A DNA stretch of 64,000 nt from NCBI GenBank assembly GCA_050486405.1, contig JBJHDF010000004.1:118316-182315 (forward strand). Direction: 5' to 3'. The notes beneath the pieces were generated by a model. It saw nothing but the letters and a program-made list of their open reading frames with translations, searched no databases and was not told the origin of the DNA. Shown here in pieces: positions 8,245 through 30,380 of the stretch. Origin of the DNA: Marinimicrobium sp. GTDB lineage: Bacteria; Pseudomonadota; Gammaproteobacteria; Pseudomonadales; Cellvibrionaceae. The translations under genes and the position numbers were made by a program. The first letter of the stretch is position 1. Every line of letters starts with the position of its first letter.

Positions 8245-9326
8245 TACCGGGCCAGTGCGGCCAACTGGTCCGCCTGGTATTCCTGCATCAGGGCATCGCA
8301 GACATCGTCCAGATACCCTTCCATCACTTCACCCAGTTTATACAGCGTAAGATTGATGCGGTGATCGGTGAGGCGCCCCTGGGGAAAGTTGTAGGTGCGA
8401 ATCCGTTCGGAGCGATCGCCGCTGCCCACCAGTTGCCGCCGCTCGTCGCTGATGGACTGCGCCGCCGTTTCCTCGCGAATGTTCTTCAGCTTTGCCGCCA
8501 GCAGTGACAGGGCGCGGGCGCGGTTCTTGTGCTGGGAGCGCTCGTCCTGACACTCCACCACAATACCCGTGGGTAAGTGGGTGATGCGAATGGCGGAGTC
8601 GGTTTTGTTGACGTGCTGACCGCCGGCGCCGGAGGCACGGAAGGTGTCGATGCGCAGATCCGCCTTGTTGATCTGCACCTCTTCCATTTCGTCCGCTTCA
8701 GCCATCACCGCCACGGTGCAGGCGGAGGTGTGAATGCGCCCCTGGGATTCGGTTTCCGGCACCCGCTGCACCCGGTGCGCGCCGGATTCGAATTTCAGCC
8801 TGGCGTAGACGCCCTGGCCGCTGACCCGGGTGATGATTTCCTTGTAGCCGCCGTGCTCGCCCTCGCTTGCACTGAGCACTTCCACCTGCCAACCCTGGCG
8901 CTCGGCAAACCTGCTGTACATGCGAAACAGGTCGCCGGCAAAAATGGCCGCCTCGTCGCCGCCGGTGCCGGCGCGAATTTCCAGAAACACGTTCTTGTCG
9001 TCATCCGGATCTCTGGGCAGCAACAGTTTCTGCAGTTCCTGTTCCAGCGCGGGCAACTGCGCCTCGCAGGTTTCGATTTCTTCCCGCGCCATATCACGCA
9101 GGTCCGCATCGCTTTCCTGCAACATGGCGCGCGCATCGGTCAGCGTGTCCTGCAGGCGGGCATAGCGCTGGTGACACTGAATCACCGGCTCCAGTTCGGC
9201 GTACTCCCGGGACAGATCGCGGAAGCGATTCTGGTTGCTGATCACTTCCGCTTCCGACAACAGGGCGCTGACTTCCTGGTAGCGCTCATTCAGACGTTCG
9301 AGTTTTTCCAGAATCGATGCTTTCAT
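8244..9326 (-). CDS. prfA: Peptide chain release factor 1
   Basis: 360 aa. PET-type tripeptide region ([10 protein letters not shown]) and GGQ motif ([10 protein letters not shown]). Confidence 0.95.
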
Positions 9327-10593
9327 TCAGTTGGTCTATATCACTTTGGCTGATGTCAAACAGTTCCCGGGCGAACTGCAGTGTATCCACGCGGCCGTTG
9401 GCACCGGCGTCCTTGAGTGTGGAAGTGGGTGTGTGCAACAGCTTGTTGGTCAGGTTGCGCGCCAGTTGTGCGAGCACTTCCCGGCTGTCGGTGCCGGATT
9501 CCAACGCCCGCAGCGCCCGCTCCAGTTCGGCGTCGCGCAACTGTTCCGCCTTGTTGCGGTAGGCGCGAATGGTGGCCACGGCATTCAGTGCGCGCAACTC
9601 CCGCTGGTACTGCACCACACCCTCGGCGATGATCTGCTCCGCCAGACCCGCCGCTTCCACCCGGGACTGGCGGTTTTTGTCGATCACCGCGTGCAGGTCA
9701 TCCACCGTGTACAGGTAGACGTCGTCCAGATCGCCCACCTCTTCCTCGATATCCCGGGGCACCGCAATGTCCAGCATGAACATGGGTTTGTGCCGGCGCT
9801 TCTTCAGGGCCGACTCCACCGCGCCCTTGCCCAGCAGGGGCAACTGGCTGGCGGTGGAGGAAATGACGATGTCCGCCCGGGCCAGGTGCTCGGGAATATC
9901 GGCCAGCAATATGGCCTCGGCGCCCACATCCTCGGCCAGGCGCCGCGCCCGCTCCAGGGTGCGGTTGGCGACGATCATTTTTTTGATGCCCTGCTCCTTC
10001 AGGTGCCGGGCCACCAGGTCGATGGTTTCACCGGCACCGATCAGCAGGGCCGTATCCTCCTTGAGATCGGAGAAAATCTGTTGCGCCAGGCTCACCGCCG
10101 CGTAGGCGACGGACACCGGATGCTCGCCGATGGCGGTCTCCGAGCGCACCCGCTTGGCCACCGCCAGCACCTGCTGAAAGGTGCTGTGCAACAGGCTGCC
10201 CACCGTGCCCTCCTCCCGGGCCAGGGCGTAAGCGGATTTCATCTGCCCCAGTATCTGCGGCTCGCCCAGTACCAATGAATCCAGCCCGCCGGCGACTTTC
10301 ATCATGTGCCGCACCGCTTCTTCACCGGCATGGCAGTAGTAGCAGCGGTCCAACTCCTCTCTCTGAATGGTGCTGTGGCTCACCAGCCAGTCCAACAACG
10401 CCTCCTGCGCCACCTGGCTGCTGACGTAGATCTCGGTGCGGTTACAGGTGGACAGTATGGCGATCTCGTCCACCCCGGCTTTTTCCCGGGCGTCGCGCAG
10501 CGCCAGAGGCAGGGCCTCCGGCGCAAAGGCCACCCGTTCGCGCAGCGCCAGCGGTGCCGTATTGTGGTTGATGCCGAAGGCAAGCAGGGTCAT
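9286..10593 (-). CDS. hemA: Glutamyl-tRNA reductase
   Basis: 435 aa. [14 protein letters not shown] start, TCNRTEIY active-site Cys motif, GAGE NADPH loop. The 3' end overlaps the prfA start by 41 nt. Confidence 0.92.
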
Positions 10594-10779
10594 GGAGTCT
10601 TTGCGCGGCCGGTCTTGTCCAATAAAGGGTTGTCATTGTAACCCACGCCAGTCGGAGCTACGAGGGCCAGCGCTGGCGGTGGCCATCCGGGACGGCTAAG
10701 TTTATGATGGTGTCCCGGACCACAGCCACCCGCAGTACAGCGGCCACAGGCCGCCGCAACCAAACAGTAGGAACGACGA

Positions 10780-12507
10780 GTGACCGCAAGATCCATCCAG
10801 ATCCTCGCCCTGAGCCTGATTCTGGCGCTGGCGGGCTGTGCCCGGCAGCCGGTGGCGCCCCAGGAAGAGCAACTGCGGCCGACGGACCAGGTCCGCGTGC
10901 CCGCCGCCGAGTTGGCACCTGCTCGGCCCTTCACCAGTGACACACTCTACGCCCTGCTGGCCGCCGAAATCGCCGGTTCCCGGGAAATGTACGACATAGC
11001 CCTGGCCAACTATGTCCAGCAGGCGCACCTGACCCGCGACCCCCAGGTGGCGGCCCGGGCCACTTTGATCGCACGCTTTATGAACGCCGATGAGCTGGCG
11101 CTGGAGACGGCCCTGCTCTGGGCGGAAGTGGCACCAGAGGACAGCGAGGCACAACTCACGGCAACGCTGGGACTCATCGAAGCCGGGCGCCTGCAGGAAG
11201 CTTTTGACAAGGCCCGGCACATGCACGCCCGGGGCGATGAAATGCTGTTCCAGAACATCGCCGCCCGCAGCGACGGCATCACCCGGGCGCAGCGCGAACA
11301 GCTGCTGGAGGGCTACCTGGGCCTGCTGCAGCAACACCCCGACAATCTACAGTTGCTGATCGGCGCCGGACTGTTGCTGCAACAGCAGGAGCAGCAGCCG
11401 GAAGCGCTGACGTATGCGCGCCGCGCCCTGGCGCTGGACCCCGGCAGCGTGCACGCCAGCCTGCTGTTCTCCAGCCTGCTCTACGAAACCGGCGAGCCCG
11501 ACAAGGCCGTGCGGCACCTGGAGCGACAACTGGCGAGAAACCCCGACAGTTTGCGCCTGCGGCTGCACTTGGCGCGCATTCTGTCCCAGGTGGACCTGGA
11601 ACGAGCCCAGCGGGAGTTCTCACAACTGGTTGACCAATCCCCCCACGACCCGGATCTGCTGCTGTCCCTGGGATTGGTGGCACTGGAGCGGGAGGACTTC
11701 ACCGTGGCCCAGGACGCCTTCGAAGGTCTGCTCGAGGACGGCCATTACACCTCCAGCGCCCACTATTACCTGGGTAATATTGCCGAGCAGCGAGACAATG
11801 CCTCCCTGGCTCTGATTCACTACCTGCAGGTCAGAGACGGTGCCGAATTCTACTCGGCGGCCATGAATGCTCTGACAATACTGGCCCGGCAGGGTGATCT
11901 GGCCAGCGCCCGGCAACACATGGATCGTCTGCGGCAGCGCTTCCCGGACCACGCCGAACGCCTGTATCTGGCCCAGGTACAGATACTCACTGAAACGGAC
12001 CAGGCCGACGAGGCCGACGCCATCCTGGACGAAGGGCTGAAAGCCCACCCCGCGAGCATCATGTTGCTCTACGCCCGGGCCATGATGCGCCACCAGCGGG
12101 ACAACCTGAACGGTGCCGAGGCGGACCTGCGCGCCATCATCGACCTGGACCCCGACAACGCCATGGCGCTGAACGCCCTGGGCTATATCCTCACGGACCG
12201 CACCGATCGCCACGAAGAAGCCTTCGAATTGATCACCAAGGCCCTGAGCATCGAGCCTGAAGACCCCGCCATCATCGACAGCATGGGCTGGGTGCACTAC
12301 CGCCTGGGCAATCTGGACAAGGCCGTGTCCTACCTGCAGCGGGCCATGGAACTCTATCCCGACCACGAAATCGCCTCGCATCTGGGCGAGGTACTCTGGG
12401 TGCTGGGAGAGAAGGAGCAGGCCCGGGAAGTCTGGCAGCAGGGGCTGGAGCTCAAGCCGGACAGCCCCATCATCCGCGAAGCCATGGAGCGCCTGACGGG
12501 TGAATAG
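10780..12507 (+). CDS. TPR-repeat lipoprotein (conserved partner upstream of lolB)
   Basis: 575 aa with a GTG start. Lipobox LALAGC followed by many TPR units. Overlaps the lolB start by 8 nt, as in pseudomonad hemA-divergent clusters. Confidence 0.8.
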   Translation: MTARSIQILALSLILALAGCARQPVAPQEEQLRPTDQVRVPAAELAPARPFTSDTLYALLAAEIAGSREMYDIALANYVQQAHLTRDPQVAARATLIARFMNADELALETALLWAEVAPEDSEAQLTATLGLIEAGRLQEAFDKARHMHARGDEMLFQNIAARSDGITRAQREQLLEGYLGLLQQHPDNLQLLIGAGLLLQQQEQQPEALTYARRALALDPGSVHASLLFSSLLYETGEPDKAVRHLERQLARNPDSLRLRLHLARILSQVDLERAQREFSQLVDQSPHDPDLLLSLGLVALEREDFTVAQDAFEGLLEDGHYTSSAHYYLGNIAEQRDNASLALIHYLQVRDGAEFYSAAMNALTILARQGDLASARQHMDRLRQRFPDHAERLYLAQVQILTETDQADEADAILDEGLKAHPASIMLLYARAMMRHQRDNLNGAEADLRAIIDLDPDNAMALNALGYILTDRTDRHEEAFELITKALSIEPEDPAIIDSMGWVHYRLGNLDKAVSYLQRAMELYPDHEIASHLGEVLWVLGEKEQAREVWQQGLELKPDSPIIREAMERLTGE

Positions 12508-13105
12508 CCGTGTTCTCGCGGTTGCCCTGCTGTGCCTGTTGGTCACCGGCTGCACCCTGCCCCGGGTGGAACCACTGGATGACTGGAATGAACACCGCGC
12601 CCTGCTGGAGCAACTGGACCAATGGCAACTCACCGGCAGACTGGGCGTGCGCGTGCCCGGTGACAGCGGCAGCGCCAATCTGCGCTGGGAACACAGCGGC
12701 GACCACTACCGCCTGGATCTCAGCGGCCCGCTGGGGCAGGGCAGATTCCGCATCACCGGCCGACCTGGCGAAATCACCCTGGAACAGGCCGGCCGGGAGC
12801 CCATCACCTCCGCCAGTGCCGAAGACCTGATCTGGGAGGCCACCGGCTGGATACTGCCGGTGGATCATCTGGTGTATTGGGTCAAGGGCATCCCCAGCCC
12901 GGACAGCGCCGTACAATCCCGCCGCTACAACGAACAGGGACTGCTGGAAGAACTGCAACAGGCCCACTGGCAACTGAGCTACGACCGCTACAGCGACAGC
13001 GCCGGCATACCCCTGCCCGGCCGCATCATCGCCCAGCGCAACGATCGCAGCGGCGACATCCGGTTGACGCTGTTGATACGGCAGTGGGAGATCGACAATC
13101 AGTGA
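12500..13105 (+). CDS. lolB: Outer-membrane lipoprotein LolB
   Basis: 201 aa with a GTG start. Lipobox LLVTGC. Assigned from size and its position between the TPR gene and ispE. Confidence 0.8.
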   Translation: MNSRVLAVALLCLLVTGCTLPRVEPLDDWNEHRALLEQLDQWQLTGRLGVRVPGDSGSANLRWEHSGDHYRLDLSGPLGQGRFRITGRPGEITLEQAGREPITSASAEDLIWEATGWILPVDHLVYWVKGIPSPDSAVQSRRYNEQGLLEELQQAHWQLSYDRYSDSAGIPLPGRIIAQRNDRSGDIRLTLLIRQWEIDNQ

Positions 13106-14274
13106 CCTGCTTCGGCCGGTTTCTGGTCCCGCTCCGCCTCGGCCATAACCCTGCGCCGATACTGCGATGGCGGCTCGCCCACCACCCGTTTAAAAAACCG
13201 CTGAAACGCCGACTGACTGTTGAAACCCGCCGCCTGGGCGATATCCAATATGGTCATTCTCTGGTCGCTGCGCAACAGCCGCTTTACCTCTTCCACTCTG
13301 AGCTGATTGATAAACTCAAAAAAGTTTTTGCCGTAATGCCGATTGAGGATAAAGGACACATCCCGCGCCTTCAAGCCACAGATTTCCGCAAAGCGCTCCA
13401 GGTTGACCTGGCTGTTCAGGTAAACGGATTTGTCGGCGATGGCGGCTTCTATTTGCGCCAGCTTTTGCTCCATATTGCCGATCGAGTCCGAACCCGATGT
13501 GCCGGACCACAAGCCAGACTTCAACAATAACTTCCGACCACTGAACAGTGCGACAAGAAAAAGGCCATTGATCAGTAACACCGTGAAATAATTATTGGCC
13601 ACACCCAACAGGTGGTTTGCCTGACCGCTGACATAATCGGACAGCTGAAAGGCGGTAAAGGACCAAAACGAATGGATGAAGAATCCCGCAACAATGATGT
13701 CAGCCCACCGCAGCTGCCAGGATGATATATCAGAGTGCGCCTGTCCTATCTGCCTGCGCAACTGGCGCTCAGCCCAAATACACGCCAGCACATACACGAT
13801 CGGCCAGGCCTTAAAAAATCTCCATATCCAAAATATAACAGTATGCTTGCTCTCCGGTATATGCGGCCAATTCCACGGCAACCAGTCGTAAACGCGCACA
13901 TTCAACGCGAGCATGATACTCGCGACGGCAACCGCCGGGATCAAATGCATGGCGCTGCGCCAGTGCCAAAGCACAAGATCTTCCGAAAGCGAACGCAGAT
14001 AAGCATATAGCGCCGGACCCTGCATTAACAGGCAGAACATCAACAACGCCGGCACCAGTGAAGACTGGGCGACAGGTCCTGCTTGCAGGTACTCGTTCCA
14101 AATAACCAAGGTGGCAATCAGAGTGCCCGCCACCAGCAGAAAAAACACCGCCAACAAGTAATTGGGCTGCTTTCTCTTTCTCGGCCACAAGAGCAGAATC
14201 AAGCAAAGGAACAGTATTTCCAGAACGGTAAACAGAATAATTATTTCATGAGCATTGAGAAAGGTACTTCTCAT
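13099..14274 (-). CDS. AraC-family transcriptional regulator with N-terminal multi-TM domain
   Basis: About 391 aa from ATG 14274. Six to eight hydrophobic helices, then a C-terminal AraC HTH (ILDIAQAAGFNSQSAFQRFFKR). Visibly AT-richer than its flanks. The 3' end overlaps the lolB stop by 7 nt (convergent). Confidence 0.8.
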   Translation of the reverse strand: MRSTFLNAHEIIILFTVLEILFLCLILLLWPRKRKQPNYLLAVFFLLVAGTLIATLVIWNEYLQAGPVAQSSLVPALLMFCLLMQGPALYAYLRSLSEDLVLWHWRSAMHLIPAVAVASIMLALNVRVYDWLPWNWPHIPESKHTVIFWIWRFFKAWPIVYVLACIWAERQLRRQIGQAHSDISSWQLRWADIIVAGFFIHSFWSFTAFQLSDYVSGQANHLLGVANNYFTVLLINGLFLVALFSGRKLLLKSGLWSGTSGSDSIGNMEQKLAQIEAAIADKSVYLNSQVNLERFAEICGLKARDVSFILNRHYGKNFFEFINQLRVEEVKRLLRSDQRMTILDIAQAAGFNSQSAFQRFFKRVVGEPPSQYRRRVMAEAERDQKPAEAGH

Positions 14275-23688: not shown

Positions 23689-23717
23689 TTGACAATTACC
23701 GCCGCCCTGACCAAAAT
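23689..23717 (+). promoter_or_regulatory. Candidate sigma70 promoter of tRNA-Met
   Basis: TTGACA (23689-23694), 17-nt spacer, CAAAAT (23712-23717), GC-rich discriminator. The tRNA starts at 23732. Confidence 0.4.
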
Positions 23718-23731
23718 ACGCGCCCCATCAT

Positions 23732-23808
23732 GGCAAGGTAGCTCAGCCGGTTAGAGCACAGCACTCATAATGCTGGGGTCGGCGGTTCAAGTCCGCCCCT
23801 TGCTACCA
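23732..23808 (+). tRNA. tRNA-Met, elongator type (anticodon CAT)
   Basis: 77-nt cloverleaf. D-arm AGCTCAGCCGGTTAGAGCA, anticodon loop CTCATAA, T-arm GGCGGTTCAAGTCCGCC, ACCA end. Position 1-72 would be a G-U pair. A CAT anticodon could formally also be Ile2. Confidence 0.85.
23760..23808 (+). repeat. attL (3' 49 nt of the intact tRNA-Met)
   Basis: agcactcataatgctggggtcggcggttcaagtccgccccttgctacca, identical to 29694-29742. Confidence 0.9.
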
Positions 23809-23854
23809 CTATCCAAGGGATTAGCGGGTTAATACTCGCTAACCTCTTCCCTCC

Positions 23855-23897
23855 AGGTAAGCATATGGTAAGCATGGCGCACCGAAAAAGGTAAGCA
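23855..23897 (+). repeat. Arm-type repeat cluster (GGTAAGCA x3) at the left end of the island
   Basis: The 23-mer aggtaagcatatggtaagcatgg (23855-23877) is identical to 29547-29569. One extra aggtaagca copy at 23889-23897. Confidence 0.7.
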
Positions 23898-23919
23898 GTG
23901 CTGCCTGATTGCCAGGCAC

Positions 23920-23942
23920 AAAAAACCCGGCACATGGCCGGG
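23920..23942 (-). terminator. Rho-independent terminator ending the island's leftward operon
   Basis: On the minus strand cccggc-catgt-gccggg followed by TTTTTT, 25 nt after the stop of CDS 23967..24539. Confidence 0.7.
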
Positions 23943-23966
23943 CATTGTCGAGCGGTAAAATCCGGG

Positions 23967-24539
23967 TTATTCGGGCCGGTCAATGCTCGCGGTCGCAATG
24001 TTTGAGTAGCAGCCTGACACCAAAGTCGCCCGGGCAGTCGCCTTCCGCAAATCTGCCAGCAGGGTTGCTGTTTGAGGCGAATGGAGTTGGCCAAAGCCAT
24101 CGGGCCGGTCAGCACCTTTCCCCAGCGTCTGAAATGCCCGATAGGTGACAGCTTCTGACTCGGTGACGGCTGCCGCCAGTATCTCGGCTTCCGCCAGCAC
24201 CTTTGGAACTAGCTTTTCCAACTCAGCCGCTGCGGCCACCGCTTGCTTTCTGGAGGCTTCCCACTCAGGGCGCAGCAGCTCTACAGCCGCCTGTGCTTCC
24301 CTCTGCCGGGCTTCCGGCAACAACCGGCTCAGGGCTTGGCGTTCAGCCTCCAGACGGCGGTGGTGGCGTTCAGCGTCCAACTGGGCAGCCTCCAGGCCAT
24401 CAACGTCGGCACCGCCGGCCATTGCCCCAGCCATCTCGCCAACAAGGTCGCGGCTTTTGAATGCCCGTAGCTCGCCGTCCAGTTCGCTCAGTCGGGCCTG
24501 AATCTGTGCTGCGGATCGTTCTTGAATAGCTGCGTTCAT
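23967..24539 (-). CDS. Island protein, unknown function (Ala/Glu-rich, predicted coiled coil)
   Basis: 190-aa ORF, last gene of the leftward operon. Heptad-like charged sequence (ERHHRRLEAERQALSRLLPEARQREAQAAVELL). No recognisable catalytic motif. Confidence 0.55.
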   Translation of the reverse strand: MNAAIQERSAAQIQARLSELDGELRAFKSRDLVGEMAGAMAGGADVDGLEAAQLDAERHHRRLEAERQALSRLLPEARQREAQAAVELLRPEWEASRKQAVAAAAELEKLVPKVLAEAEILAAAVTESEAVTYRAFQTLGKGADRPDGFGQLHSPQTATLLADLRKATARATLVSGCYSNIATASIDRPE

Positions 24540-24550
24540 GTGTTGCCCCC

Positions 24551-24829
24551 TTAGTCAAAGTCCGGCAGTTCGTCGGACAGCTCGCCATCCGTCATGGTGC
24601 GGGCATTGGCCGCCATTCCGGCCAGGTTGAGTTGCTCACGCTGCTGGTCGTGCTCTGCGGCCCGCTGCTTTTCGCGCTGGGCTTCGGCTTCGGTGCGCTT
24701 CTTTTCGGCGGTTTCCAGTGCGTCCAGGCGCTCGACGAAAGGCGCTAGAGACGCAGAAACTACGCGAACAACGTCATCAGCGTTTAACGCAAGCGTGGAG
24801 CTTGCGACGGAAAAGGTTTGTTTGGTCAT
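24551..24829 (-). CDS. Island protein, unknown function (charged helix, acidic C-terminus)
   Basis: 92-aa ORF, 11 nt upstream of the next gene. KKRTEAEAQREKQRAAEHDQQREQ helix and DGELSDELPDFD tail. Confidence 0.5.
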   Translation of the reverse strand: MTKQTFSVASSTLALNADDVVRVVSASLAPFVERLDALETAEKKRTEAEAQREKQRAAEHDQQREQLNLAGMAANARTMTDGELSDELPDFD

Positions 24830-24862
24830 GGGGATATTTCCTGTTTGAAAAGTGTGGGCCTG

Positions 24863-25069
24863 TCAGGGGTTCTTTATCGGCAAGGTGACTTTGGCGCTTG
24901 CCAAGGATTCGATGGTGGCCGGGATATATTGGCCGGTGGGGGTGCGCTCCAACAATTCACCCGGGGTGCCGTCAGCCTCGACCACTTGCCGGAAGAGTAT
25001 TAGGGGCGCTTCGGGCAGCTTGCGGGCCTCAAGGTCTGCAATACGGCGGCGCAGGGCTTCAGTGTTCAT
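24863..25069 (-). CDS. Island protein, unknown function
   Basis: 68-aa ORF in the operon array, preceded by an SD-like GGAG. No motif recognised. Confidence 0.45.
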   Translation of the reverse strand: MNTEALRRRIADLEARKLPEAPLILFRQVVEADGTPGELLERTPTGQYIPATIESLASAKVTLPIKNP

Positions 25070-25084
25070 ACGGTAAGCTCCGGG

Positions 25085-25390
25085 TCATTCTCTGAGTAAT
25101 CGCTCGTAGTCGGCTGCCGCCTGCTCAACGGTCAAGCCCGGCGGAACTTCAACTTCTTCCGACAGGAGTTGGACGTACTGCTGGACGCGATAGTCAGTAA
25201 GCGCCTTCAATGCCGGTGTTTCGATGCGCGCAATGTAGGACGGGCCAAGCTCTCCGGGCACCAGGTCGGGCGCGGGCTGGCCCAGTTCAATCAGTGCCGC
25301 CCGAATGCGGGCCGGTGATTCGGGGTCAGTAGTTTGCTTTTTCTGCTCAGCCTCAAGAGACGACAGGCGACGACGTAGTGAGTCAATCAT
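25085..25390 (-). CDS. Island protein, unknown function
   Basis: 101-aa ORF. Its ATG overlaps the stop of the DUF5681-like gene (ATGA-type 4-nt overlap at 25387-25390). Confidence 0.5.
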   Translation of the reverse strand: MIDSLRRRLSSLEAEQKKQTTDPESPARIRAALIELGQPAPDLVPGELGPSYIARIETPALKALTDYRVQQYVQLLSEEVEVPPGLTVEQAAADYERLLRE

Positions 25391-25818
25391 GCGGCGGCCC
25401 TCGTGCCCGATGATTGTTCGAGCGCTTCAATGCGGCGGGTCAGTTCGTCAACCTCGGATATGCGCGCAACCTGCCCTAACGCGCCAACAAGTTGTGCCAC
25501 GGAATCAGAAGGTGCTTTTCCCTCAGCGGCTGCGTCAATCAGACGGCGGGATACGCAAGCCAAACCTTCCGCGCCGGTCAAGTCAATATCCAGTGCCACC
25601 GGTTGCGGTTTTAACGGTGGTGCAATGCGGTCAAGACAAATCCGCAGCGCTGCCACGTCGCCAGCCAAGGCCAACTCGACGGCTTTTTCCACAAGCTCGG
25701 CTCCGTGGCGGGAAAGCTGTTTGCGAAGCTCGGCGGACGCACTGCGGGGCCTGCCGTTTGGGTTGCCGCTCACACCTTGCGGGAAGCGGCCTTTTGCGTC
25801 TCGGGTTTTGTCGGTCAT
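25387..25818 (-). CDS. DUF5681-like phage-associated protein (GNPNGRP motif)
   Basis: 143 aa from ATG 25818. N-terminal GRFPQGVSGNPNGRPRSA motif, as I recall it for DUF5681 proteins of phages and satellites. Helical C-terminus. Confidence 0.6.
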   Translation of the reverse strand: MTDKTRDAKGRFPQGVSGNPNGRPRSASAELRKQLSRHGAELVEKAVELALAGDVAALRICLDRIAPPLKPQPVALDIDLTGAEGLACVSRRLIDAAAEGKAPSDSVAQLVGALGQVARISEVDELTRRIEALEQSSGTRAAA

Positions 25819-25860
25819 GCTCCTGTTCCTCACCTGCCTAACAGGTATGTATGCACGTCC

Positions 25861-25889
25861 AGTATAGCACCTGTTTTGCGTACTCTCAA
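25861..25889 (-). promoter_or_regulatory. Strong sigma70-type promoter for the DUF5681-to-190aa module, bracketed by an inverted repeat
   Basis: On the minus strand TTGAGA (25884-25889), 17-nt spacer, TATACT (25861-25866). A 7-bp inverted repeat aacaggt (25840-25846) / acctgtt (25869-25875) spans the -10 and the predicted start site. Confidence 0.55.
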
Positions 25890-25908
25890 CTTTGCCAAAG
25901 TGTGGCCG

Positions 25909-27021
25909 CTATCTGTTTGCACTGTGGTCTGTTCGTGCGTCAGGCAAAGTCCACCAGTAGCGGCTAGCCACCTTGCCGGAACCTTTGCGCTCCAGTTTCA
26001 AAACATCGTCTAGCACCAGCGCGGAGAGTATCTTAGCGGCATCGGTGAAATGCACGTTCACCAGCTCGCCAGCTTGCCGCGCACTAATGAAAAACGGATC
26101 ATCACCATGGTGCTCTGCCAGCCTGCGGCAAACTTTCGCCAATAGAATCGATTGGGGGCCGTACCCCAGGCCATCCACCCCTTGCGGAATGGGGTCGCCC
26201 TCCACCCCGTCAAGAACCCTCGCCATTGTTTCGCCGTGCGGAAACTTAACCTTGTCCCAGCCGCGCAAAAAGTCCCCCCAAGTGACACCGAAGTCTTTTG
26301 TCCCAATAACCGGAAATGCGAGGCTGTGCCATTCCTGAACGATGCTCCGAAGCTCTGCCTTCGTCGCGTTGGGTCTGGTACCCTTTAGGTAACGGGCCAG
26401 CTCGAATAAGCACTTGTTCCGTTGCCCTTCGGATTCAGGCAGAAACTCACCTACAGAAGAGCACGGAAGATTACTGAAGATGACCTCTGTCATCCTCTGT
26501 CCTCCTCTGTTCTCTTCTGTTCTCTTCTGTAGGTCTCGGGACAGGGCCGCAACTCCACACAATGGGGCGAGCGGGCCATTGTCTATCACGTCACCCGTGT
26601 ATGTTATGTACCTCTGGGCGCGGTAAATCTCAATATTCAGTCCCAGATAGCGGCCCTTTTTCCGGGCCAGTTCGTCATTACAGTATCCCCACCCGTGAAG
26701 ACCGCATCCCGAAGGGCTGCGCTCAATGAATCGACAGTTCAGTTCGCGCAGCATGGCCACCGCCTCAGTGCTGGTGCTGTAGTCAATGTCGATGCAGGCC
26801 AGCCCATCCTCGGCAACCAGAACAAAGCCTACTCCGTGGTCGCGAGGCGAGGTAAAGCTATTTCGCGCCTCCTCAAAGCTGCTCCACGTTTTCGGGTTTG
26901 TGCTGGAGGCCGTTATTCGGGGGCTGCTTGCTTGGTAGGGAACCTTTTTCCCTCGCCACAATACCCACCTATGGAGACGCGCTAGTTCCTCGGGGGCGCG
27001 GTCAAAGTCCGGTTTTACCAT
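25909..27021 (-). CDS. Prim-pol type DNA primase/polymerase (replication initiator) with C-terminal wHTH-like domain
   Basis: 370 aa. GVGFVL..DGLACIDIDY (DxD) and SPSGCGLHGWGY motifs typical of bifunctional prim-pol N-terminal domains. No helicase P-loop seen. Confidence 0.75.
   Translation of the reverse strand: MVKPDFDRAPEELARLHRWVLWRGKKVPYQASSPRITASSTNPKTWSSFEEARNSFTSPRDHGVGFVLVAEDGLACIDIDYSTSTEAVAMLRELNCRFIERSPSGCGLHGWGYCNDELARKKGRYLGLNIEIYRAQRYITYTGDVIDNGPLAPLCGVAALSRDLQKRTEENRGGQRMTEVIFSNLPCSSVGEFLPESEGQRNKCLFELARYLKGTRPNATKAELRSIVQEWHSLAFPVIGTKDFGVTWGDFLRGWDKVKFPHGETMARVLDGVEGDPIPQGVDGLGYGPQSILLAKVCRRLAEHHGDDPFFISARQAGELVNVHFTDAAKILSALVLDDVLKLERKGSGKVASRYWWTLPDARTDHSANR
26481..26530. 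repeat. Five tandem 10-bp units (iteron-like) inside the prim-pol gene
   Basis: tgacctctgt / catcctctgt / cctcctctgt / tctcttctgt / tctcttctgt. Exact 10-bp phasing, located in the linker between the two prim-pol domains. Confidence 0.6.
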
Positions 27022-27024
27022 CGG

Positions 27025-27351
27025 TCACACCCCCAATGCGCGTTCCAGCTTGCGGCGGTCACGGGCGCTGGCGTGATATTTTCCGTACCAGCTTGGCCTG
27101 CCGTCTATCGTGACAAACGGAACACGCTCGCAGTACAGCACAACGTTCAACTTGCGGCGCAGGCCCATGACCACATCCGGGGCATTGCTGGCCGGCGCTA
27201 TCCGGTCGGCGCGTTCTCGGGTAACCGGGCCACGCAACAACGCACGGGCAAGGCGGATCTGTCGCTTGCTCAGTACCGGCGTGTTAGAATTCGGGGATCG
27301 AGTTTTTCTTTCTTGGGCCGTCCGTGCGGGGCGGCTTTTTTTTGTTTTCAT
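27025..27351 (-). CDS. Small basic DNA-binding (winged-helix-like) protein
   Basis: 108 aa. Lys/Arg-rich N-terminus, then SKRQIRLARALLRGPVTRERADRIAPASNAPDVVMGLRRK (helix-turn-helix pattern). Overlaps the alpA-like stop by 4 nt. Confidence 0.55.
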   Translation of the reverse strand: MKTKKSRPARTAQERKTRSPNSNTPVLSKRQIRLARALLRGPVTRERADRIAPASNAPDVVMGLRRKLNVVLYCERVPFVTIDGRPSWYGKYHASARDRRKLERALGV

Positions 27352-27575
27352 GCGGCAGTCCCCCGTTCACTTGCGCTGGCCATCGGCTCAGAAAGCCGAC
27401 TCTCTGCCCATGACAGCAAGTCGCCGGGAGTGTAGAGCGACCGGCTTCCAAACTTTCGATAGGTGGGGCCGCCGCCGATGCAGGCCAGCTTCGCCAAAGT
27501 GCCATTGGTGGCCGGGTAGCCGTGCTCGGCTAGGTATGCTGCCGCCTCTCGGCGACTTAGGTAGGTCTCGGTCAT
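27348..27575 (-). CDS. AlpA/excisionase-family (MerR-like HTH_17) DNA-binding protein
   Basis: 75 aa. YLSRREAAAYLAEHGYPATNGTLAKLACIGGGPTYRKFG matches the AlpA/Xis HTH pattern found next to P4-type integrases. Confidence 0.7.
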   Translation of the reverse strand: MTETYLSRREAAAYLAEHGYPATNGTLAKLACIGGGPTYRKFGSRSLYTPGDLLSWAESRLSEPMASASERGTAA

Positions 27576-27647
27576 GCGATTTTCTCCGAAGAAAAGGGAA
27601 ATTAACCAACGGAGAAAATGGTAAATAGGGTTTGACTCCTAGCCGGG

Positions 27648-28238
27648 CTAGCGCCCTTTTTTCCTCGCCTCTCTCAATCTTGTACGGAACCGACTTAATG
27701 TTATATGCCCTTCCTTTCCAGTCTCGTCCTCCGTGTAATGGACCTGCGACTCTCCGGCTTTGGTCTGGCACTCCCTCGGTTCCATCATTGCGGCGTCCAG
27801 CGCACCCCAAAACAGCTCCCAAAGCTCGCCCGGTTTGTGCTCAGTCATCGCTAGGCGGTTGATAATGTCCTCAACATTCTGAATACCGCGCGGCTTCTGC
27901 GCCTTTATGCGCTGCTCAGTGGAATAGTTAAATGCACCCATCTGGTTTGTCGCTATGGCGGCAGCCTCAAGGTCTTGGTAAATTTGCAGCATCAAAATCT
28001 TGAGTTTCTGTGTCAGGCCCTTATTGCAAAAATATCGCGCATCGCCAATGCGGCGGTACGTCTCCTTGAACTCCTCCTGCAAATCCTCGGGCAGCTCACG
28101 GTTAAGCGACTCCTCCCATTCGTCCAGCTTTGCCATGGGGTCGGGCGGCAGCACCGTTTGCTTTGCTTCGGCCTTACGCACAGCGGCCTTTTTTGCCTCA
28201 AGGTATAGAAATTCGGCCATTGCTTTGGGGTCATCCAC
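27648..28238 (-). CDS. Island protein, unknown function, translationally coupled to the integrase
   Basis: 196 aa. Its start overlaps the integrase stop by 8 nt. Locally lower GC than the rest of the island. No recognisable motif. Confidence 0.55.
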   Translation of the reverse strand: MDDPKAMAEFLYLEAKKAAVRKAEAKQTVLPPDPMAKLDEWEESLNRELPEDLQEEFKETYRRIGDARYFCNKGLTQKLKILMLQIYQDLEAAAIATNQMGAFNYSTEQRIKAQKPRGIQNVEDIINRLAMTEHKPGELWELFWGALDAAMMEPRECQTKAGESQVHYTEDETGKEGHITLSRFRTRLREARKKGR

Positions 28239-29529
28239 GGTTCACGCCCTCCTTGCGAAGGTCCACGACCTCGCCAGCCTCCCGTCCTTCAAGTGCCGCA
28301 GCAATGCCGGATGTGTGGCGCTCGATGACCGCCGCCCGGTCTTGGTCGCCGAAGTGCAGATAACGCTTTGTAGTGCTCAATTGGGTATGGCCCAACGTCT
28401 CGGCAATCTGTGCCGCCTGAGCACCCTGCACCGCCATCAGTGAGCCTATGCTGTGGCGTAAACCATGAAGACCTATGCCCTCCGGTAAACCAGCTTCCTG
28501 CCGCACAAGCCGCCACGGCTTCGACAATGCCAGCGGCACCCCGTTGCCCTTGGCCGACTCGAAGACCAGGCTGTCAGGGCTTCCCTGGGGCTGTCTGGCA
28601 ACGACTGCCTGAGCCGCGCTGGGGAGGTTGATTGTCTTTGCCTTGCCGCTCTTGTGACCGGTCTTGTGCGCCTTCGCTGGCAGCTCAATCAAGCCGCGCC
28701 TGAGGTCTACCCACCGCCAGCGCAAACCCGTAATCTCGCCACGGCGGCAGCCGGTGAGCGCCAGAACCCGGATGGCATCGGCCACGGGTCGCCGAATCCG
28801 GCGCTGTTCTTCGAGCGCTTCCAGGGTGCGAAACAGCCGGGGGTAATCTTCCGGCCTTAGAATCTGCTCGCGCTCGCCGTCACTGCCAAAGCTCAGCCCC
28901 GCCGCCGGGTTATTTGGAATCAGCTTTTCCGATTCTCCCCAAGCGAATATCGCCCGCAGTACCCGGCAGGCCATCCGTGCTGCACCTTCACCGCCGCGAA
29001 CAATGGCCCGACCACGCGGCCCGGTACGCTCGTCGGTCGCCGTCTTTCCAGTGGCGATTGCCTTGCGAGCGCGTAGCACATCTTCCGCCGTCAGGCTTTC
29101 GACAATCTGGTGACCAAGCAGCGGGCGTATGTGCCGGTCAAGGCGGCCCCGGTCTGTCTTGCGTGTGGTTTCAGCCTTGGCCGCGAATTTCTCCGAGGCC
29201 AGATACTCGTCCAGCAAGTCGTTGACGGTCAGCGCTTCGCGGCGCTTCCGGCGCTCGGCCTGAGGGTCTTTGCCCGCCCTCACCTCAGCGGCCAAATTCT
29301 TGGCCAGTTGCCGGGCCTCGTCTAAGGTAAGCATTTTTGCCGATTTTCCGAGTGTGTAGCGGCGGGTTTTGTTGTGCTGATTCCGGTACTGGAAAACGAA
29401 GGTTTTTGTTCCCGCTGGATAGACGGCTACGCCAAGACCAGCAACGGCGCGGCTTCCCTCGTCCCATATGAAATACTTGGCGGCTTTTGGCTCCAGATTT
29501 CTGATAAGGTTCTTTGTCAGTTTTGGCAT
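28231..29529 (-). CDS. int: Tyrosine recombinase, P4-type integrase (DUF4102 N-terminal arm-binding domain)
   Basis: 432 aa from ATG 29529 (MPKLTKNLIRNLEPKAAKYFIWDE...FVFQYR). Catalytic region has TGCRRGE, HGLRHS and a C-terminal LGHTQLSTTKRYLH (R..HxxR..Y). Confidence 0.9.
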   Translation of the reverse strand: MPKLTKNLIRNLEPKAAKYFIWDEGSRAVAGLGVAVYPAGTKTFVFQYRNQHNKTRRYTLGKSAKMLTLDEARQLAKNLAAEVRAGKDPQAERRKRREALTVNDLLDEYLASEKFAAKAETTRKTDRGRLDRHIRPLLGHQIVESLTAEDVLRARKAIATGKTATDERTGPRGRAIVRGGEGAARMACRVLRAIFAWGESEKLIPNNPAAGLSFGSDGEREQILRPEDYPRLFRTLEALEEQRRIRRPVADAIRVLALTGCRRGEITGLRWRWVDLRRGLIELPAKAHKTGHKSGKAKTINLPSAAQAVVARQPQGSPDSLVFESAKGNGVPLALSKPWRLVRQEAGLPEGIGLHGLRHSIGSLMAVQGAQAAQIAETLGHTQLSTTKRYLHFGDQDRAAVIERHTSGIAAALEGREAGEVVDLRKEGVNRG

Positions 29530-29546
29530 TGCAAACACCTGATTTT

Positions 29547-29677
29547 AGGTAAGCATATGGTAAGCATGGAAGCGCCAAAACCGGGTAATTTCCGGTTTGA
29601 CCTCAGCACTGATAGTAAACCTTATCTATATGAAAATAAAGGGAAAAGTATAGAATAGTCGATTTAGGTAAGCATGG
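29547..29677 (+). repeat. Arm-type repeat cluster (GGTAAGCA x3) at the right end of the island, with an AT-rich spacer
   Basis: The 23-mer at 29547-29569 is identical to 23855-23877. Further aggtaagcatgg copy at 29666-29677. An AT-rich tract at 29610-29660 lies between them (possible bending-protein site). Confidence 0.7.
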
Positions 29678-29693
29678 GAAAAGGGGTTGTTCA

Positions 29694-29742
29694 AGCACTC
29701 ATAATGCTGGGGTCGGCGGTTCAAGTCCGCCCCTTGCTACCA
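29694..29742 (+). repeat. attR (duplicated 3' 49 nt of tRNA-Met)
   Basis: Identical to 23760-23808. It lacks the 5' half of the tRNA, so it is not a gene. Confidence 0.9.
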
Positions 29743-30380
29743 TACTCTGCGGGGTTGTCGGGTCCAGGCCCGGCGACCCCGATCTCCAGCCAACGCAGAT
29801 CCTCCGGGCGGTCGATATCCCGCAGTGGTTCTCCCTGATACAGCCGCCAGCCCAGGGCCGCGATGCGTGCCAGGGTGATCCGCGCCACTTGGGGGCCGCC
29901 CCAGGGAATGTCGCGGAAGAGACGCTCATCCGTGCGGGTCAGGCCCAGCAGGGCGTAGCCGCCGTCGACGGCCGGGTAGAGCGCCACCTCGACGCCCTCC
30001 AGCGCCCGGGCAGCCCGGCGCAGCAGGTCGGCGGACATCTCCACGCAATCCGTGCCCACCAGCAGCACCCGGGGCGACTCCACCAACGCCCGGCGGGCGG
30101 CGCGGGCCATGCGCTGGCCCAGATCCCCCGGACCCTGGTCGCTCACGATCAGACTTGGCGGCAGGGACACCCCTCCCCAGGCTTCGCTGCCCGGCGCGGG
30201 GGTGGCGCAGAGTTCCACCGGCCCCAGATCGGCCTGCAGCGCCGCATCCAGGGTGCGCTGCAACAGGCGGGCGGCCAGAGCCGCTGCACCTGTTTCGCCC
30301 AGGGCCGGCACCAGGCGGGTTTTGGCCAGGCCCGGCAGTGGCGCCTTGGCAAAGACAATAACCCGCGTCGACTCTGTCAC
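29721..30380 (-). CDS. DUF2064 / TIGR04282-like nucleotidyltransferase-fold protein
   Basis: 219 aa if GTG 30380 is used (GTGA overlap with the upstream GT2 stop): VTESTRVIVFAKAPLPGLAKTRL.... The last 22 nt run into attR. Confidence 0.7.
   Translation of the reverse strand: MTESTRVIVFAKAPLPGLAKTRLVPALGETGAAALAARLLQRTLDAALQADLGPVELCATPAPGSEAWGGVSLPPSLIVSDQGPGDLGQRMARAARRALVESPRVLLVGTDCVEMSADLLRRAARALEGVEVALYPAVDGGYALLGLTRTDERLFRDIPWGGPQVARITLARIAALGWRLYQGEPLRDIDRPEDLRWLEIGVAGPGPDNPAEYGSKGRT

Follow-up and report, generated by a model that had tools for sequence, protein, structure and literature searches.

We analyzed a 64-kb window of contig JBJHDF010000004.1 from a Marinimicrobium sp. (the window being the whole stretch of 64,000 nucleotides, with position 1 as its first letter) and found in it a discrete 5.9-kb island, integrated at the 3′ end of a tRNA-Met gene by a P4-type integrase and probably a minimal phage satellite. 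The insertion measures 5,934 bp and lies directly 3′ of the intact tRNA gene. A 49-bp direct repeat bounds it, the one outstanding family from the repeat finder; its two copies are identical, and the repeat unit is likewise 5,934 bp. The original prediction had described the copies as perfect and the left one as the 3′ end of tRNA-Met, and both points were confirmed (23760-23808 equals 29694-29742). The junctions comprise the following features.

23689-23717: sigma70-like promoter of tRNA-Met (TTGACA-17-CAAAAT), just upstream of the tRNA
23732-23808, plus strand: tRNA-Met(CAT), integration target, attB side of attL (ARAGORN; Rfam tRNA, 70 bits)
23760-23808, plus strand: attL core, left copy of the 49-bp repeat (family D1), 3′ end of tRNA-Met
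23855-23897, plus strand: three arm-type repeats beside attL (AGGTAAGCA, TGGTAAGCA, AGGTAAGCA), candidate integrase arm-binding sites
29325-29674, plus strand: four arm-type repeats beside attR, at 29325, 29547, 29560, and 29666 (repeat families D5 and D10)
29667-29742, plus strand: pseudo-tRNA, island DNA fused to the 49-bp core (ARAGORN call; Rfam, 28.1 bits)
29694-29742, plus strand: attR core, right copy of the 49-bp repeat (family D1)
Predicted attB junction: tRNA-Met joined to TACTCTGCGGGGTTGTC
Predicted attP junction: GGTAAGCATGGGAAAAGGGGTTGTTCA, then the core, then CTATCCAAGGG

Junctions and gene layout

The likeness between the two junctions runs ~21 nt beyond the perfect core (23809-23829 versus 29743-29763; 70 nt at 87%), which suggests that the attP of the island was shaped on a related tRNA-Met locus. 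A second tRNA-Met at 29667-29742, which would make this a tRNA-carrying island, was rejected: the call is a chimera, and its score falls below the Rfam tRNA gathering score of 29 bits, against 70 bits for the real gene. Within this pseudo-tRNA, the arm-type repeat GGTAAGCAT mimics the acceptor 5′ strand (GGCAAGG). Automatic annotation could wrongly list two tRNA-Met genes here.

The 9-mer AGGTAAGCA occurs five times in the window, always on the plus strand and always within ~370 nt of the two junctions; 0.18 copies are expected by chance, and five were reached in none of 100 shuffles. Two TGGTAAGCA variants bring the arm-type repeats to seven, three by attL and four by attR, the latter falling within and upstream of the 5′ end of int. 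A perfect 23-nt repeat (family D10) pairs 23855-23877 with 29547-29569. We regard the seven repeats as candidate arm sites for the arm-binding domain of the integrase, which would flank the core in the excised circle, as an integrase of this kind requires. Like the tRNA and the 49-bp repeats, the arm sites exceed chance expectation by a wide margin.

Across 29250-30250, the G+C content jumps: it is 0.50 where the island ends near int and 0.74 in the chromosomal genes just right of attR. Over the island as a whole it is 0.53-0.65, and the left flank, at about 0.59, is not far off. A flanking oxidoreductase of 730 amino acids (aa) has its best named matches in Marinimicrobium and Gilvimarinus, at about 72%. 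The island itself is filled by the following genes and signals, listed from the integrase toward the tRNA.

28231-29538, minus strand: g1, P4/CP4-57-type tyrosine integrase (int), 435 aa (Pfam, PHROGs)
27648-28238, minus strand: g2, 196 aa, with a GTG start codon and an 8-nt overlap with the int stop
27348-27575, minus strand: g3, 75 aa, predicted winged-helix protein of excisionase or recombination directionality factor type in the AlpA position (PDB sequence match)
27025-27351, minus strand: g4, 108 aa, conserved; its gene lies between those of the regulator and the primase (same-position homologues)
25909-27021, minus strand: g5, predicted replication initiator, 370 aa, with an N-terminal AEP prim-pol domain and a conserved C-terminal domain
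26449-26534, no strand: putative replication origin inside g5 (inverted repeats I1 and I2 plus an iteron pattern)
25861-25889, minus strand: candidate distal-operon promoter (TTGAGA-17-TATACT with an extended -10 TG), a consensus match only, between the g5 stop and the g6 start
25387-25818, minus strand: g6, 143-aa DUF5681 protein, proposed to act like a small terminase as a factor for packaging specificity (Pfam DUF5681, 7e-12)
25085-25390, minus strand: g7, 101 aa; overlaps the g6 stop by 4 nt, and its N terminus resembles the C-terminal helix of g6
24863-25069, minus strand: g8, 68 aa, with an N-terminal E-x-R-[IL]-x-x-L-E motif, as in g7
24551-24829, minus strand: g9, 92 aa, charged (open reading frame only)
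23967-24539, minus strand: g10, 190 aa, all-helical, conserved family (AlphaFold2 model, homologues)
23925-23943, minus strand: candidate intrinsic terminator closing the distal operon (7-bp stem with six GC pairs, then TTTTTGT), 24 nt past the g10 stop

The ten open reading frames (ORFs) are intact and tightly packed. All lie on the minus strand, in line with the co-orientation first proposed for them, and the integrase therefore stands at the end far from the intact tRNA. Neighbors are spaced by 3-33 nt or overlap by 4-8 nt, except at two wider gaps (72 nt between g2 and g3 and about 90 nt before g6). None of the ten proteins matched a virion, lysis, or known defense gene in Pfam, PHROGs, NCBIfam, or PADLOC, and nothing similar to a capsid, portal, tail, large terminase, holin, or endolysin protein was found among them; the expectation that the island has no virion or lysis genes was thus borne out. 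For g2, g4, and g7-g10, the same four libraries gave no match at meaningful E-values.

A strong internal promoter and a terminal terminator had also been proposed. Matches do lie at those places, and the one at 25861-25889 is the best sigma70-like match of the region, but the counts of such matches in the region are not above those in shuffles (2 versus 2.0 promoters and 11 versus 8.9 terminators), so that only their placement favors them.

Replication half and its relatives

The identification of g1 as a P4-type integrase was upheld by its three Pfam domains, Arm-DNA-bind_3 (2.7e-17), Phage_int_M (5.6e-7), and Phage_integrase (4.3e-18), and its PHROG match is phrog_1 (6e-59). Judged by its place, g2 is an analogue of the int-overlapping gene (iolg) of the phage-inducible chromosomal minimalist islands (PICMI), where that gene is needed for excision (PMC10085698). 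Genes that overlap int are also present in two of the relatives, whose loci we number L001 onward (4 nt in L003 and 1 nt in L022).

The next two genes lost the labels first given to them. The 75-aa g3, called AlpA-like, matches neither Pfam PF05930 (Phage_AlpA) nor HTH_17 and has no similarity to the AlpA proteins at the same position in relatives; the genes in this position in L001 and L022 do belong to PF05930/HTH_17. Its best PDB sequence match is instead the recombination directionality factor RdfS (8dgl, E = 1.2e-4), and because this is its best solved relative, we read g3 as an excisionase-type winged-helix protein. The label of winged helix-turn-helix protein for the 108-aa g4 found no support in any library searched (no family match in Pfam, PHROGs, NCBIfam, or PADLOC and no PDB match). 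Homologues of g4 occupy the same position in other elements, with 54% identity in the Halomonas island L022 and 38% in L001, L002, and L005, which resemble phage-inducible chromosomal islands that form capsids (cf-PICIs). By position, g4 corresponds to up1 of PICMI.

In g5, the AEP prim-pol domain covers residues 9-149, and there is no helicase domain. These residues match the NrS-1 prim-pol and PDB 7ola at about 1e-14, and PHROG primases are matched at 1e-22 to 1e-28 (phrog_8643 at 6e-28 and phrog_1829 at 2e-25), so the prim-pol label stands. We found 147 homologues, of which the named ones are from Betaproteobacteria. The full-length 370-aa architecture is absent from phage and plasmid collections, in which only the AEP domain recurs, within larger primase-helicases.

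Inside g5, in the linker between its two domains, lies an array of 10-bp iterons (ACRGARGAnn); read on the gene strand, four of them are direct, and after these come two inverted copies. The paired-iteron pattern has four matches in the 64 kb, all of them at 26449-26534, with 0 expected. Nine other elements (L001, L003, L005, L006, L007, L009, L010, L011, and L012), the cf-PICI-like ones included, carry this array at the corresponding point of their prim-pol genes, although their prim-pol proteins are only 41-67% identical. Because the DNA motif is kept through this protein divergence, the best explanation is that the array is likely a replication origin, which we list as putative. The ori-lambda origin sits within the lambda O gene, and the likeness extends to iterons placed inside the initiator gene, in the linker between two domains. 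In contrast to lambda O, g5 belongs to an unrelated family (AEP prim-pol), and its binding to the iterons is putative. Both this conserved array and the seven arm-type repeats at the two junctions are newly described here. Common to the capsid-forming elements, the ACRGARGA array may offer a simple DNA marker for this replicon family.

The closest g5 relatives (67%) recovered with their context came from two Logan assemblies and one Pseudomonas metagenome-assembled genome (L005), and they appear to sit in cf-PICIs of Pseudomonas and Betaproteobacteria. The first half of L001, L002, and L005 comprises int, small ORFs, AlpA (PF05930), the g4 homologue, and the prim-pol gene; the second half comprises an HK97 capsid, an S78 protease, a portal, an HNH protein, a small terminase (TerS), a large terminase (TerL), a head-tail connector, and a head closure protein. 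On gene order, we assign these elements the cf-PICI architecture, and the replication module of the island is one that it has in common with cf-PICIs. In L005, the arrangement is bounded by tRNA-Ser. Other relatives are 9.5-12 kb long and are flanked by 16-60-bp direct repeats that derive from tRNA-Arg, -Asn, -Thr, or -Ser. Since the relatives occupy five different tRNAs, the family is mobile and changes its target with ease. Of the elements seen, the present island is the smallest. In the isolate assembly of Pollutimonas subterranea (L006, NZ_PDNW01000044), the prim-pol homologue has a 5,226-bp contig to itself, and no terminal overlap was found that would show it to be episomal.

DUF5681 and the distal module

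The distal operon is headed by g6. Its assignment to DUF5681 was confirmed, but the start is most likely the ATG at 25818, which has a good ribosome-binding site, rather than the GTG at 25833 that had been proposed. To our knowledge, DUF5681 has no experimentally known function, and it comes up in a single one of the papers searched. The AlphaFold2 model of the g6 monomer is all-helical (pLDDT 81).

We found an indication of a role in the gene neighborhoods of viral DUF5681 genes. A scan of IMG/VR with a DUF5681 alignment gave 73 loci, in which most DUF5681 ORFs of 100-140 aa abut or overlap a following ORF of 400-480 aa. These longer ORFs match Terminase_6N in 35 of 48 cases, Terminase_3 in 15 of 48, and TerL_ATPase in 3 of 48, and a co-oriented large terminase lies directly 3′ of the DUF5681 ORF in at least 35 of the 48 viral contigs examined. 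A large terminase is likewise the next gene in L064, which holds a full-length relative of g6. The order here is the classical one of TerS and TerL, with DUF5681 in the small-terminase position. The earlier statement that the distal module matches no TerS set is accordingly probably wrong in substance, and we lean slightly toward g6 acting as a small terminase. A tblastn search of INPHARED with three different DUF5681 queries returned almost nothing.

Proteins close to g6 (63-71%) are encoded in an island of Halomonas alkalisoli (L022; JAKCMJ010000006, 11.4 kb) and in a 6.8-kb metagenomic contig. The Halomonas island is composed of int, an int-overlapping gene, an AlpA/HTH_17 gene, the g4 homologue (54%), a 933-aa primase, and a distal part of DUF5681 and small ORFs that ends at tRNA-Arg; the metagenomic contig has DUF5681, then small ORFs, and then a homologue of g10. 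The distal module is thus found with three replicases (the 370-aa prim-pol, the 933-aa primase, and a VapE-type protein), which is how a self-contained hijacking module should behave.

A metagenome scan with the close g6 subfamily gave 80 loci. The large same-strand ORFs upstream of DUF5681 at these loci encode integrases (six) and proteins of replication (AAA_25, DUF3987, DnaB, VapE, PriCT_2, and Prim-Pol), and none of them is a capsid, portal, or terminase gene. Downstream of DUF5681 come small ORFs and then tRNAs or housekeeping genes, and one locus is phage-like. The islands that hold the close relatives of g6 are therefore tRNA-integrated and have the order int, replicase, DUF5681, small ORFs. 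Some of these are compact: a 6.5-kb contig has room for all of L108 from int to tRNA-Arg (although the contig end may truncate the int ORF), and L111 packs int, prim-pol, and DUF5681 into 3.2 kb.

Of the small proteins that follow g6, g7 and g8 are linked to it by a motif. The conserved C-terminal helix of DUF5681 reads R-I-x-E-v-D-E-L-x-R-R-L-x-A-L-E, and its motif E-x-R-L-x-x-L-E recurs at the N termini of small proteins beside DUF5681 genes at no fewer than nine other loci (L015, L022, L023, L025, L119, L121, L123, L140, and L177). Within the island, g8 gives a weak hidden Markov model match at residues 6-15, and in g7 the motif is seen by eye. The matches are individually weak (E 0.04-2 among 13,343 ORFs); almost all of those outside DUF5681 proteins lie in this position, and it is this consistency of position that appears notable. 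For g9, PHROGs gave matches to the coiled parts of two proteins, one a head maturation protease and the other a scaffolding protein, and these are not significant (E 0.0016-0.05).

The family of g10 has 76 cluster representatives of about 190 aa among 1.84 billion proteins searched. The AlphaFold2 model of g10 consists of long helices (pLDDT 93.8, pTM 0.74), and the protein has no PHROG or Pfam match and no significant PDB match in fold or sequence. A relationship to P4 Psu (Foldseek E = 3.5, TM 0.33) was rejected as a chance likeness between long helices. Homologues of g10 were found in L023, where the gene lies beside DUF5681, and in L100, the only viral contig with one; a metagenome scan with the g10 alignment returned nothing. 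In L100 (IMG/VR UViG 3300002461_000254, 59 kb; region 8273-13919), the g10-family gene stands between the large terminase and the tape measure gene. No portal or capsid gene was recognized between TerL and the tape measure there, and a serine recombinase and a primase/helicase lie upstream.

Two relatives carry tail genes within or beside the module. In L022, a 496-aa tape measure homologue (10661-12151; phrog_8125, 8e-38) lies inside the DUF5681 module, and no other tail or head genes were recognized beside it. In L024 (MT836812, 8,660 bp, from a human fecal virome), DUF5681 and small ORFs are accompanied by a Phage_TAC_11 chaperone and an 825-aa tape measure (TMP_2), and a Mob_Pre relaxase gene lies on the opposite strand; the contig is oddly mixed, with genes for packaging, tails, and plasmid mobilization. 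Through these two relatives, the DUF5681 module is linked to virion assembly; the island itself is without such genes. A tape measure or tail role for the module, as L022, L024, and L100 might suggest, was not adopted, the island having no such gene.

Satellite families and rival readings

An island with the core genes of small phage satellites had been predicted, and this is supported: the locus holds a discrete element, integrated at a tRNA, whose int, excisionase-like regulator, small gene, and primase form the core known from Gram-negative satellites. PICIs, the phage-inducible chromosomal islands, are defined by int, a regulator (a homologue of alpA, merR, or stl), a primase-replicase, and terS, in that gene order; a capsid morphogenesis gene is optional and is absent from Type B (PMC10085698). 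The island resembles them in its tyrosine integrase at a specific site, its own primase-replicase (AEP domain and conserved iterons) with a putative origin, a regulator in the AlpA position, a TerS-like gene without a large terminase, the lack of other virion or lysis genes, and the order int, regulator, replicase, packaging module. It differs in size (5.9 kb versus a PICI median of 9.5 kb; PMC10085698) and in two of the defining genes. The regulator, g3, has the RdfS match (E = 1.2e-4) and misses the Phage_AlpA and HTH_17 profiles, and the TerS candidate is a DUF5681 protein and not a member of a recognized terminase family, its case being the TerS position that DUF5681 holds in at least 35 of 48 viral loci. 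Further differences are that no capsid morphogenesis gene was matched among the island proteins in Pfam or PHROGs, that the host is a marine Cellvibrionales-like gammaproteobacterium, and that its induction and transfer are predicted. It would be a Type B PICI if g6 is a TerS; otherwise, it would belong to Type C, the three-component hits that SatelliteFinder treats as ambiguous (PMC10085698). The original prediction had allowed for a new satellite family, but with g6 as a TerS, the island fits the PICI scheme (int, regulator, primase-replicase, terS) rather than being wholly new: we regard it as an unusually small, uncatalogued variant of the PICI kind and not as something categorically new.

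PICIs and cf-PICIs share the int-regulator-primase half (PMC10085698), and the nearest relatives of g5 (67%) and g4 (38%) as well as the same iteron array are found in the cf-PICI-like elements described above (L001, L002, and L005). Unlike these, the island lacks capsid, portal, TerL, and connectors and has the five-gene DUF5681 module in their place.

Two other families had been named as the closest comparisons, and the island belongs to neither. In PICMI, int and an int-overlapping gene are followed by an alpA-position regulator, then a small gene, and then a primase (PMC10085698, PMC10803314), and the island matches them in the order of these first five genes, in a size of ~6 kb, and in having no recognized capsid-remodeling genes. 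Packaging as concatemers, shown for PICMI (PMC10803314), is an expectation for the island. Of the int, alpA, and prim genes that mark PICMI, the island has int and prim, and its alpA-position gene is without an AlpA-profile match. However, the hallmark of PICMI is integration next to fis, complete ones are found only in Vibrionaceae/Vibrio genomes, and they encode no terS (PMC10803314); the Fis/TerS set ascribed to them was therefore wrong. The island, in contrast, is integrated in tRNA-Met in a host of another bacterial order, outside the Vibrionaceae, and adds a TerS-like gene and four more with a promoter and terminator of their own. The P4-like core has seven components: int, psu, delta, sid, alpA, epsilon, and alpha (PMC10085698). 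The island shares with it an arm-binding P4-type integrase, a tRNA target, an AEP-type primase, a regulator in the AlpA position, and small size, but only int and the AEP primase domain are present from the core, and the other five genes are not. No homologues of Psu, Delta, Sid, or Epsilon were matched in Pfam, PHROGs, or NCBIfam, and the island primase lacks the helicase part of P4 alpha.

We consider the island probably to be a minimal satellite of the PICI/SaPI (Staphylococcus aureus pathogenicity island) type that redirects the packaging motor of a helper phage by means of its own TerS-like protein. Infection by the helper, or its induction, would switch on the early genes, int, g2, and g3 and then g4 and the primase. 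The products of int, g2, and g3 would excise the island as a circle. The g5 protein would then bind the iterons within its coding sequence, in the manner of lambda O at ori-lambda, and start replication with the helicase and polymerase of the host; the array and its conservation are observed, and the binding of the initiator is what we infer from them. Acting as a small terminase, g6 would recognize a pac site on the island and recruit the large terminase of the helper, as SaPI TerS does, such that island DNA rather than phage DNA would be pumped into helper capsids. We propose this packaging step because of the gene neighborhoods of DUF5681. Given its length of 5.9 kb, the island would enter capsids in the form of multimers, by a headful mechanism, unless g9 or g10 remodels the capsid, and g7-g10 might, speculatively, tune or sabotage helper packaging or capsid assembly. 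After transduction, the integrase would reinsert the island into tRNA-Met.

Several results weigh against this mechanism. Neither a helper phage nor an excision product, circular form, or packaged copy was seen, and no helper was recognized within the 64-kb window. The island DNA had no match in phage and plasmid collections. Of 34 contigs shorter than 9 kb, mostly viral or metagenomic, none has the terminal overlap of a circular assembly, so the contig sizes of ~6 kb are no evidence of circles. An empty attB was sought at the loci of the nearest flanking-gene relatives (L098 and L099; ~72-75% identity), and none was found: both lack the tRNA and have lost synteny, and the host has no closer relative available in which an empty site could be seen. 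No function could be assigned to g2, g4, or g7-g10. Moreover, the assignment of g6 as TerS rests on gene position, not homology. It matches no named TerS family, and PHROGs lists the DUF5681 families as of unknown function; Foldseek found no solved TerS in the PDB, where a profile search also gave nothing real; among viral models, Foldseek returned DUF5681 proteins only, plus one very weak TerS match; and hhalign of g6 against one TerS, from the island relative L002, was negative. In a minority of the viral loci, an extra small ORF stands between DUF5681 and TerL, and most of the viral DUF5681 matches span only the N-terminal 60 residues.

The island might instead be an integrative, self-replicating element that is no satellite: a cryptic replicon, or an island that is mobilized by conjugation or immobile, with regulators or cargo in its distal operon and DUF5681 as a DNA-binding regulator. 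We judge this unlikely. AEP domains do occur on plasmids too, but the same replication module drives capsid-forming PICIs. Similarly, the DUF5681 module of L024 adjoins a Mob_Pre relaxase, but no relaxase, coupling protein, or oriT-like feature was found in the island. The lack of an experimentally known function for DUF5681 leaves room for a regulator, yet the family is tied to TerL in phages, and the tape measure and tail-chaperone genes in the modules of relatives, together with the g10 homologue between TerL and a tape measure gene, point to virion assembly. An integrase, an excisionase, and a primase are found in nonsatellite islands as well, which is the reason why Type C is ambiguous (PMC10085698).

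Still less likely is a decayed remnant of a larger PICI, cf-PICI, or prophage that has lost its morphogenesis genes and become immobile. Such decay would fit the small size of the island, roughly half that of the relatives (9.5-12 kb) or of a median PICI (9.5 kb; PMC10085698), and the full capsid module that the nearest prim-pol relatives carry in place of g6-g10. However, the 49-bp repeats are perfect, the ten ORFs are intact and overlap or abut as in an operon, the arm sites and iterons are intact, and the distal operon retains its promoter and terminator. The module of DUF5681 and small ORFs also recurs in independent compact islands (L108 and L111), and it is not homologous to the capsid genes of cf-PICIs, which argues for a replacement and not a deletion product. 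Equally improbable is a phage-defense island in which g2 and g7-g10 serve mainly abortive infection or phage interference and mobility is secondary: these genes are without an assignable function, and satellites commonly carry defense genes, as PICMI115 does (PMC10085698), but PADLOC matched none of the ten proteins, the genes in question encode small helical proteins without enzymatic domains, and defense would be compatible with a satellite and no replacement for one.

If the island is indeed a TerS-dependent satellite, it would be among the smallest that still have their own packaging-specificity gene, and its ten genes in 5.9 kb would help to define the minimum for hijacking a tailed phage. 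DUF5681, a family of many phage contigs and islands, would gain a function, and attention would be drawn to an island class that probably receives the score of an ambiguous three-component hit from present satellite finders. The g10 family and the small proteins that mimic the DUF5681 helix are candidates for new mechanisms of phage interference or capsid remodeling.

A broader proposal, possible but doubtful at present, is that DUF5681 is an unrecognized small-terminase family and that the islands with the order int, replicase, DUF5681, small ORFs make up a class of minimal TerS-only satellites that is widespread but uncatalogued, whose small proteins copy the C-terminal helix of TerS to join or block terminase complexes. 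Such a class would span soil, freshwater, and marine Beta- and Gammaproteobacteria and many tRNAs, and the helix-copying proteins, if they do act on terminase complexes, would represent a new way to disturb helper packaging. Among the DUF5681 loci, L105 (531-13996) has two similar integrase genes on the same strand, 12 kb apart, with a DUF5681 gene between them, and may hold tandem islands at a single site.

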